Virus record (IMG/VR): IMGVR_UViG_2718218227_000001
Source of the DNA: a virus
Lineage: Duplodnaviria; Heunggongvirae; Uroviricota; Caudoviricetes
Reading direction: 5' to 3' (one strand)
DNA length: 22,234 bases
Shown here: in pieces, positions 5,455-6,741 of the stretch
Numbering within the stretch: the stretch's first letter is position 1
Layout of the letters: each line of letters opens with the position of its first letter
Made by a program: the position numbers and the translations under genes
Notes under the pieces: model-generated
Seen by the model: the letters and a program-made list of their open reading frames with translations, nothing else
The model's database searches: none
Told to the model about the DNA's origin: nothing

Positions 5455-6741
5455 ATGACGATTGCGAAGGATAGTTCGACTGATGAAATCATTCATGGAA
5501 ATGATCTCCGTGGAATGGATGATTTTTACATTAAGACAACGAGTTTTGAATGCCCATACGAGCCTTGTAAAATTAAAGCCACACCTTGTAGTTTTACTAT
5601 GAAACATGTTAATCAATCATATTTCAGATATGGCGATAAACATAAGGATGGATGTGGTATTCATGATCCAAGATATAAAAACAATCATACTTCAAATGAC
5701 GAAAGAAAACATAATTCGCCACCTGCTCCGGTTATATCACTTTTAAAAATTGATGTGAAACCAAGAGGTGGTGTTAAAAATGCCAGAAATATTAAAAATG
5801 AAAATCACAAGGATGAAAAAAAAGGTAATGAACATCCTGTATCTTCATCAAGTATTAAGCCAGTCGTTGACTATTACATAAATAATAGCAATCATAATGA
5901 ACAGCTATCAATCCCTCCATATGGCACGCGATCTTATAAAGATACATTTCAACTTATTTTTTACAAAAACAACATACGTTATTACAAACCTGCTATTTAT
6001 TATGGTGTAGCCCAGTCTAATATTCGTCTGCATGAAGATTCAGATAAACATTGTATTACTTTCCTCGCAAGGGATAAGAAAACCCAAAAACCATTTACGC
6101 TTGAAATTGATGTTTCTGACTGGAATAAAAGTCAGAAGGATGTGTTTTGGAAGGAATATGAAAAGCAAAGGAAGGAAGCTGATAGGTATTATAAGGGGCT
6201 TAAAGATAAAAGGAATGCTAAAAAATACTTGACGGTTTTCTTTTTTGGGATGCCGGATGAAAATGATAAGTTTCTATTTAAGACAAACCACTTTAAATTA
6301 GTATATGTGGCTTTCTTGGGTAAATTTGAAAGCTCATATAATGATAGTAATTATTACATTGAAAATGATCTGTCTGTATCATCATTGAATGAACAACCCA
6401 TTTCATTATCTGATATAGACCATAAAAATCATGAATATAATATTGAAACTTCATTAGATTTTAGTTCTCCTTTGCCAGAGCCAGAGCCAGAGCCAGAGCC
6501 AGAGCCAGAGCCAGAGCCAGAGCCAGAGCCAGAGCCAGAGCCAGAGCCAGAGCCAGAGCCAGAGCCAGAGCCAGAGCCAGAGCCAGAGCCAGAGCCAGAG
6601 CCAGAGCCAGAGCCAGAGCCAGAGCCAGAGCCAGAGCCAGAGCCAATAAGATCCTCTTTAAAGGAAAATACTGAGACTGTAGAAATGAACAGTAAAGTTT
6701 GGGGGAGGCTGAAAAAGATAATCACTTTCTTTAAAAAGTGA
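5455..6741 (+). CDS. Hypothetical protein with N-terminal Cys cluster and a C-terminal (Pro-Glu)~28 repeat spacer
   Basis: 428-aa ORF. N-terminal CPYEPC...C...C cluster; uninterrupted PE dipeptide run encoded by the hexamer array at 6475..6645; short basic amphipathic C-terminal tail. No family recognised. Confidence 0.55.
6475..6645. repeat. Perfect tandem hexanucleotide repeat (CCAGAG/GAGCCA)n, about 28.5 units, inside a coding region
   Basis: Directly visible: 171 bp of uninterrupted 6-bp units. It is open in several frames on both strands (PE on the plus strand; GS and LA on the minus strand), which explains the artefactual minus-strand ORFs 6429..6725 and 6461..6646. Confidence 0.95.

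Follow-up and report, generated by a model that had tools for sequence, protein, structure and literature searches.

What is the significance of a long and perfect tandem repeat within a coding sequence? The question arises from a stretch of DNA of 22,234 nucleotides (the window, by which we mean the whole of the stretch analysed), recorded as a virus of the class Caudoviricetes (IMG/VR record IMGVR_UViG_2718218227_000001), in which a (CCAGAG)n array sits inside an open reading frame (ORF) of 428 amino acids at 5455..6741 on the + strand. We refer to this ORF as the repeat gene and to its product as the repeat protein. A sequence-only reading of the window saw in the array a possible rigid, TonB-like molecular ruler or a possible length-variable contingency locus. 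Our analysis leads elsewhere. The array is the published Escherichia coli O157:H7 typing marker known as TR2, Vhec1 or O157-10; very probably it is also a slippage-prone and largely neutral tether in an Avs8B-like protein, encoded behind a GInt-like recombination module.

The array is a published typing marker

Tandem Repeats Finder (TRF) reports one array, at 6474-6645, with a period of 6, 28.7 copies, 100% matches, no indels and a score of 344. It resolves into 28 perfect CCAGAG units followed by CCA, or 171 bp (6475-6645). The triple unit CCAGAGCCAGAGCCAGAG occurs in register 26 times from 6475 to 6642, and not once in 100 dinucleotide-preserving shuffles. On the + strand the array is in frame within the repeat gene, where it is translated as L-(PE)28-P-I. 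TRF, shuffle counts and translation thus agree with the sequence-only reading on the existence of a perfect 171-bp array in a 428-residue ORF. That reading was also right to describe the array as free of stop codons in several frames on both strands; indeed, all six are open (CCA-GAG, CAG-AGC and AGA-GCC on the + strand; CTC-TGG, TCT-GGC and CTG-GCT on the - strand). Because the unit is stop-free in every frame, minus-strand (GS)n and (LA)n ORFs are produced mechanically. We rejected these as genes: conservation and a peptide detected by mass spectrometry both favour the + strand frame.

The identity of the array is settled by its flanks and its unit. On either side stands an exact match to a published primer for TR2, a locus used in MLVA (the analysis of variable-number tandem repeats at multiple loci): GGAAGGAAGCTGATAGGT at 6170..6187 on the + strand and CGCAGTTGATACCTACGG at 6762..6779 on the - strand, the latter inside a terminator hairpin, with 0 matches expected by chance in each case (PMC2246123; the first primer from Table 2). 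The unit published for the locus, TGGCTC (PMC2246123), is a rotation of CTCTGG, which is the reverse complement of CCAGAG. TR2, Vhec1 and O157-10 are one locus (PMC3768571), named respectively by Noller in 2003, by Lindstedt in 2003 and by Keys in 2005 (also as VNTR-10, where VNTR stands for variable-number tandem repeat). Given two exact primer sites, an equivalent unit and the synonymy of the names, the array is therefore the published marker. Primer sites, hexamer unit, extreme copy-number polymorphism and the top mutation rate among O157 VNTRs are common to both, and at the level of DNA there is no difference between them. The window is E. coli O157:H7 chromosome.

A literature search on forward-strand rotations of the CCAGAG motif returned no match, and the link to the typing marker had been missed by the sequence-only reading. 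The array itself is not new: it is a routine epidemiological marker, already published, and its rediscovery gives typing nothing. For the ORFs that harbour such VNTR loci Jenke et al. offer hypothetical proteins, or proteins of unknown function, only, and the MLVA literature covered here states no function for them.

Copy number varies in whole units

A 1.5-kb interval around the array is present in 314 of 5,426 complete E. coli genomes, namely those of O157:H7, O55:H7 and a few O121:H19 and O155 strains. From match coordinates in 79 complete genomes we counted 30 alleles, ranging from 6 to 52 units; these differ by multiples of 6 bp, the sole exception being one O121:H19 strain with other indels. 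The lengths of the annotated coding sequence (CDS) correspond to 24 units in strain Sakai and 40 in EC4115, and in every match listed from the 314 genomes the CDS annotation ('hypothetical protein') is kept. The comparison of copy number among related isolates called for by the sequence-only reading thus reveals a highly variable locus, in which, as that reading anticipated, change in whole units preserves the frame.

Experimental evolution points the same way. During serial passage O157-10, which mutates more readily than any other VNTR of E. coli O157:H7, took 41 of 57 VNTR mutations, the combined mutation rate being 1.8e-3 per generation; single events involved up to 23 units, complete array deletions also arose, and published alleles span 11-43 units (PMC3777172). 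The notion of a length-variable contingency locus is therefore half right. Length is variable; because the coding unit is 6 bp, alleles differ by multiples of 6 and annotation of the CDS persists, the locus is nonetheless not a classical phase-variable contingency locus, a unit of this size being unable to switch the frame on and off.

Two features of the genome records deserve mention. Many O157:H7 records place the locus near 1.23 Mb on the + strand, and others (Sakai and EC4115 among them) near 3.3-3.6 Mb on the - strand; the cause may be that the records start at different origins, or else the large inversions for which O157:H7 chromosomes are known. Short-read assemblies, for their part, break or gap at arrays of this kind, and several loci have runs of N or contig ends within the repeat (P0001, L004-L006, L009 and L011). 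The main E. coli cluster of the repeat protein (1,019 member sequences) is labelled 'partial' and ends ...DFSSP. An exact look-up of full-length alleles of 23, 24 and 28 units in a collection of 15 billion proteins found none present, which is consistent with assemblies breaking at the array.

The repeat gene is translated and expressed

The Sakai annotation lists the repeat gene as ECs_3507 and places it within 'prophage Sp17'. Orthologues with 50-98% identity come from Xenorhabdus, Pantoea, Enterobacter, Erwinia, Yersinia and other sources, and in an alignment of 16 sequences residues C33, C38, C45, H63 and C67 are invariant and H70 nearly so. The ratio of nonsynonymous to synonymous substitution rates (dN/dS) is 0.08-0.19 across residues 1-306 and, by comparison with X. 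bovienii, 0.16 for the 27 alignable codons that follow the array. A basic tail is conserved in frame behind arrays of 2.5, 5, 12, 26 and 28 units: the array is therefore translated. A peptide of the repeat protein has been detected by mass spectrometry, and Tyr56 is reported to be phosphorylated in strain EDL933. The repeat gene is thus real, translated and expressed. The sequence-only reading had named an invariant copy number combined with a silent ORF as the finding that would tell against it; the number proves to vary and the protein is detected. As a separate observation, Tyr56 (5620-5622 in the window) lies inside the conserved Cys/His module described below, between the invariant S55 and F57.

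AlphaFold2 (AF2), run on the 16-sequence alignment, divides the protein into five parts. Residues 1-70 form a module of moderate confidence containing the Cys/His residues (predicted local distance difference test score, pLDDT, about 70-80); residues 72-158 are a basic segment of low confidence; residues 160-300 are a confident β-barrel with a long helix (pLDDT 80-92); residues 307-408, repeat included, are again of low confidence; and residues 409-427 form a terminal helix. Taking alignment and model together we delimit a putative zinc-binding N-terminal Cys/His module (residues 1-71; 5455..5667, + strand) and a conserved core domain (residues 159-306; 5929..6372, + strand) that is weakly reminiscent of an oligonucleotide/oligosaccharide-binding (OB) fold: fold searches gave weak OB-fold matches and nothing else. 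The basic amphipathic helix at the C-terminus (residues 409-428; 6679..6738, + strand) is indicated by AF2, by its hydrophobic moment (0.55), by its net charge (+6), and by conservation and dN/dS. Between core and helix the repeat region contributes 28 acidic residues and no basic ones. The picture of a spacer joining a folded domain to a short basic tail, drawn earlier from the letters of the window, is upheld, and the architecture recurs in other genomes.

We found no hydrophobic segment, signal sequence or transmembrane anchor – the maximum Kyte-Doolittle hydropathy over 19 residues is 0.78 and the N-terminus is polar – and the protein is a cytoplasmic one. By analogy with other proteins, the terminal helix may be a tail that binds membrane or a partner.

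The linker differs among orthologues and in a paralogue

A comparison of linkers is informative. Two to three PE pairs occur in a 93%-identical relative, in Yersinia and in Pantoea ananatis; five in Xenorhabdus bovienii and Enterobacter genomosp. O; eight, written with CCTGAG codons, in Erwinia sp. S63; and about 12 in Pantoea sp. GD03673. Pantoea dispersa has (QE)~26, a C-to-A change having affected every unit. At the corresponding locus (L010, approximately 9018-9190) some 26 CAAGAG units stand in place of CCAGAG, with only the terminal CCA unchanged: a clear case of concerted evolution by slippage.

A paralogue in E. coli and E. albertii, 61% identical to the repeat protein, carries its own in-frame VNTR at the equivalent linker site (L005 10984-11197; also L004, L006 and L011). 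In both E. albertii and the common E. coli paralogue the unit is the 9-bp GCTGAGGTT, encoding (AEV)n. The (AEV)n paralogue is found in 253 complete E. coli genomes, CFT073 included, where it spans 958 to 1516 bp, almost entirely in 9-bp steps (roughly 5 to 67 units). Its setting is a defence island, where a NERD/UvrD helicase gene flanks it on one side and QatABCD on the other and where CBASS genes are close at hand. From the varied units and lengths of the (PE), (QE) and (AEV) linkers it follows that proline is dispensable, that length is not fixed and that arrays arose more than once.

The repeat protein resembles Avs8B

No model in Pfam, PHROGs or NCBIfam matches the repeat protein outside the repeat. 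The PADLOC profile PD-Lambda-4_B does so directly but partially (E 1.9e-7; residues 151-284 align with positions 161-294 in a profile of 303). An exhaustive search of 1.84 billion representatives with a profile of the family recovered 211 clusters at E ≤ 1e-3, most of about 300 residues, and five of the eight relatives of 288-331 residues that were scanned are full-length PD-Lambda-4_B members (E 1e-37 to 1e-57). Full-length homology to PD-Lambda-4_B is thereby supported transitively, and since the family profile retrieves full-length members the repeat protein belongs to the superfamily of Avs8B (PD-λ-4_B), as one of its long and divergent forms. The gene avs8B is the accessory gene of Avs8, an anti-phage system built on an NTPase of the STAND class (signal transduction ATPases with numerous domains) (bioRxiv 10.1101/2025.07.02.662641).

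What the two proteins share is a homologous N-terminal module and core. The repeat protein is longer by about 130 residues, the added parts being the linker and the amphipathic tail, and its gene has no Avs8A neighbour but is preceded instead by a GInt-like recombinase module: a scan of seven neighbouring ORFs gave no match to PD-Lambda-4_A, and no ORF in the window encodes more than 543 residues. Among the best 150 relatives listed, 47 have at least 340 residues and a non-conserved linker rich in Ser, Glu and Pro (mean about 100 residues); a basic amphipathic C-terminus is present in 33 of these 47, as against 6 of 78 short forms. Exact tandem amino-acid repeats that reach 10 residues are absent from all 47. 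A search of PDB sequences with the family profile gave nothing significant.

More distant relatives are also encountered on plasmids (matches H151-H165). A 502-kb plasmid of Yersinia pseudotuberculosis encodes one with 61% identity, and others, ~28.5% identical over the N-terminal module and core, are encoded by about 38 plasmids (60-70 kb) of Vibrio isolates from shrimp with acute hepatopancreatic necrosis disease.

The repeat gene lies behind a GInt-like module

Positions 1..4548 (+ strand) are occupied by four genes whose stops and starts overlap or abut: two tyrosine recombinases, both with a Pfam Phage_integrase match (1-1206 and 1196-2521), a 543-residue protein (2518-4149) and a 132-residue protein (4150-4548), all on the + strand. 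GInt elements have a ginABCD operon of three tyrosine-recombinase-like genes and a small fourth gene, with cargo directly after ginD (PMC5385486). Pfam content, ORF coordinates, this definition and recurrence of the module upstream of orthologues lead us to describe it as GInt-like. The 543-residue protein showed no similarity to recombinases by Pfam or PDB sequence search; a degenerate GinC is likewise reported to be without detectable recombinase similarity (PMC5385486). In E. coli, GInts carry defence cargo (PMC10121019).

A gene for a 156-residue protein, p156 (4589..5059, + strand), starts 41 nt past the 132-residue gene and is followed by the repeat gene, a like arrangement being found in distant relatives. 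It adjoins the repeat gene, before or after, wherever the recombinase module or a remnant is present (tblastn synteny in L002, L003, L007-L010 and L012), and is not beside the E. coli/E. albertii paralogue. PADLOC, PHROGs and NCBIfam searches on the neighbouring genes gave no functional lead for p132, p156 or p543.

Downstream, 18 nt past the stop codon of the repeat gene, RNA folding predicts an intrinsic-terminator-like hairpin (6759..6791, + strand; 9-bp stem, 7-nt loop, then UAAAUUUU; ΔG -17.1 kcal/mol, z = -2.9). A scan for sigma-70 promoters found fewer sites than in shuffles and is hence uninformative. Beyond the hairpin lies a convergent gene for a lipoprotein with a BamE domain, recognised by Pfam and annotation (6817..7119, - strand). 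Its product is 97-100% identical in L002, L007 and L008, and close relatives inherit this gene together with the repeat gene.

The module, p156, repeat gene and BamE-like gene (1-7119) recur at 87-100% protein identity in Pantoea sp., Enterobacter genomosp. O and Xenorhabdus littoralis (L007-L009; L009 ends inside the array, the BamE-like gene falling beyond its end); for the module the figure is 87-98%. Such identity between genera indicates recent transfer. In a more distant version the recombinases are 28-38% identical, and homologues of p156 and the repeat protein still stand directly after the fourth gene (L003 and L012; L014 to the contig end). Because the pair is kept in this position, p156 and the repeat protein look like conserved cargo of a GInt-like lineage. 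The GC content of the region is 30-35%, compared with about 45-57% in adjacent phage genes; an IS30 fragment interrupts the right side of the element and the left end is outside the window. A different setting is seen in Yersinia enterocolitica, where a homologue with two PE pairs (L015) has MobA/MobL, TraD, a shufflon and AbiGi as neighbours, a context that is conjugative or mobilisable rather than GInt.

Discussion

How, then, is the array to be understood? We consider it highly probable that the TR2/Vhec1/O157-10 array is a slippage-prone and largely neutral tether in an Avs8B-like protein encoded behind a GInt-like module. A short ancestral PEPEP seed would have run away by slippage in O157:H7, and replication slippage would continue to add and drop whole 6-bp units, changing nothing except the number of Pro-Glu pairs. 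The repeat would form an acidic tether, extended or disordered, joining the folded part of the protein – the Cys/His module and the OB-like core – to the basic amphipathic C-terminal helix. Both the sequence and the length of such a tether would be weakly constrained, and its length polymorphism would be largely neutral rather than the setting of a calibrated ruler.

Several considerations weigh against this account. Low AF2 confidence is no proof of disorder; a stiff polyproline-II conformation is conceivable for (PE)n. Rather than neutrality, hypervariable arrays at one site in two paralogues could reflect selection for variability; moreover the 79 genomes in which alleles were counted were ranked by BLAST score and are not a random sample. 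Binding of the tail to membrane is an analogy. Lastly, Avs8B is itself reported to be dispensable for defence against λ and inactive alone (bioRxiv 10.1101/2025.07.02.662641).

The competing explanations can be confronted with the same data. According to one, the array is junk within a decaying or non-functional ORF – neutral DNA whose frame is incidental – as might be suspected of AT-rich foreign DNA (31-35% GC) annotated as nothing beyond 'hypothetical protein' and open in six frames across the array. Yet the sequence to either side of the array is under purifying selection, the Cys/His residues do not vary between genera, the CDS is annotated in every match listed from the 314 genomes, and a peptide has been seen: dN/dS and mass spectrometry already contradict this reading, to which we attach next to no probability. 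No more can be said for the TonB-like ruler of the sequence-only reading, a Pro-Glu rod spanning a fixed distance between compartments or partners, which we judge extremely improbable. TonB too has an alternating Glu/Pro run between two functional parts, its Glu-Pro/Lys-Pro spacer, and the composition of the repeat recalls both that Glu-Pro segment and the EP repeats of trypanosome procyclins; the resemblance extends to sub-threshold matches with NCBIfam TonB, at E 0.0019, and with Pfam Trypan_PARP, at 32.7 bits where the cutoff is 100. The repeat protein, however, has neither transmembrane anchor nor signal peptide, no Pfam TonB C-terminal domain and no Lys-Pro half, and its NCBIfam TonB match (18.1 bits against a cutoff of 315) is to the repeat only. 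Proline gives way to glutamine throughout the P. dispersa array and the paralogue has Ala-Glu-Val. Where a ruler implies a defined length, everything from 2 to 52 units occurs, about a 25-fold range across functional-looking alleles. A relationship to TonB or to procyclin was accordingly rejected, the matches being compositional, sub-threshold and confined to the repeat.

There is rather more to be said for adaptive length variation, whereby a hypermutable linker length is selected, for instance because it tunes the reach or activity of a membrane-tethered Avs8B-like factor or allows escape from a phage or mobile-element antagonist. Two paralogues have independently acquired hypervariable in-frame arrays at one linker site (6-52 PE units; about 5-67 AEV units), Pantoea and Erwinia have likewise gained arrays built from different units or codons, and the family is found in defence islands and GInt cargo. 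But neither phenotype nor function is on record, close orthologues work with 2-5 PE pairs, and complete array deletions arise in culture; in the wider family linkers are non-conserved and, as noted, exact repeats are absent from all 47 long relatives. Runaway slippage from a low-complexity seed, moreover, accounts for recurrence without selection. We therefore think adaptive length variation unlikely. Slightly further from what we would credit is a broader conjecture in which long-form Avs8B-like proteins are membrane-tethered factors, borne by a GInt lineage as its conserved first cargo and present also in defence islands. In enterobacteria the tether would have turned more than once into a hypermutable in-frame VNTR – O157:H7 having (PE)n, Pantoea (QE)n, and extraintestinal pathogenic E. 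coli (ExPEC) and E. albertii (AEV)n – and the diversity of tether length in the population would be under selection. Were that so, 'length-contingency' would be a mechanism at work on a defence or mobile-element protein of the cytoplasm, beyond slippage that is merely tolerated.

For the proposed tether there are parallels. FtsA and MinD combine a flexible linker with a C-terminal amphipathic membrane-targeting helix; they resemble the repeat protein in having a cytoplasmic folded domain, a non-conserved linker and, at the terminus, some 15 residues that form a basic amphipathic helix, and family tails such as SWIRRLFW and ISWLRKFIRK are in the style of the FtsA tail. They differ in that there is no sequence homology and in that the linker here is a hypermutable tandem repeat; membrane binding would be by analogy. 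Single-stranded DNA-binding protein (SSB) joins an OB fold through an intrinsically disordered linker to a conserved C-terminal tip. Like the repeat protein it has an OB-like core, next a linker of low complexity whose length varies, and at the end a short peptide that is conserved; in our case, however, assignment to the OB fold is weak, the tail is not acidic but basic and amphipathic, and there is an extra Cys/His module. The Ser-Asp stalk of staphylococcal ClfA, a secreted and wall-anchored protein whose stalk length sets surface exposure, is likewise a dipeptide repeat arising from a slippage-prone array, of strain-variable length and with the frame intact; the repeat protein, by contrast, has no export signal.

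The new observations, namely recurrent linker VNTRs and a protein-level context for a marker long in use, are modest. Relative to the MLVA literature they are that the TR2 gene is carried by a GInt-like element which moves between Escherichia, Pantoea, Enterobacter and Xenorhabdus, and that an (AEV)n paralogue common in extraintestinal E. coli is independently hypervariable at the equivalent linker. This context explains why short-read assemblies truncate the repeat gene. It also offers a handle on the protein family, its members in the Avs8 system included, and the natural series of linker lengths is a resource for studying the effects of tether length.
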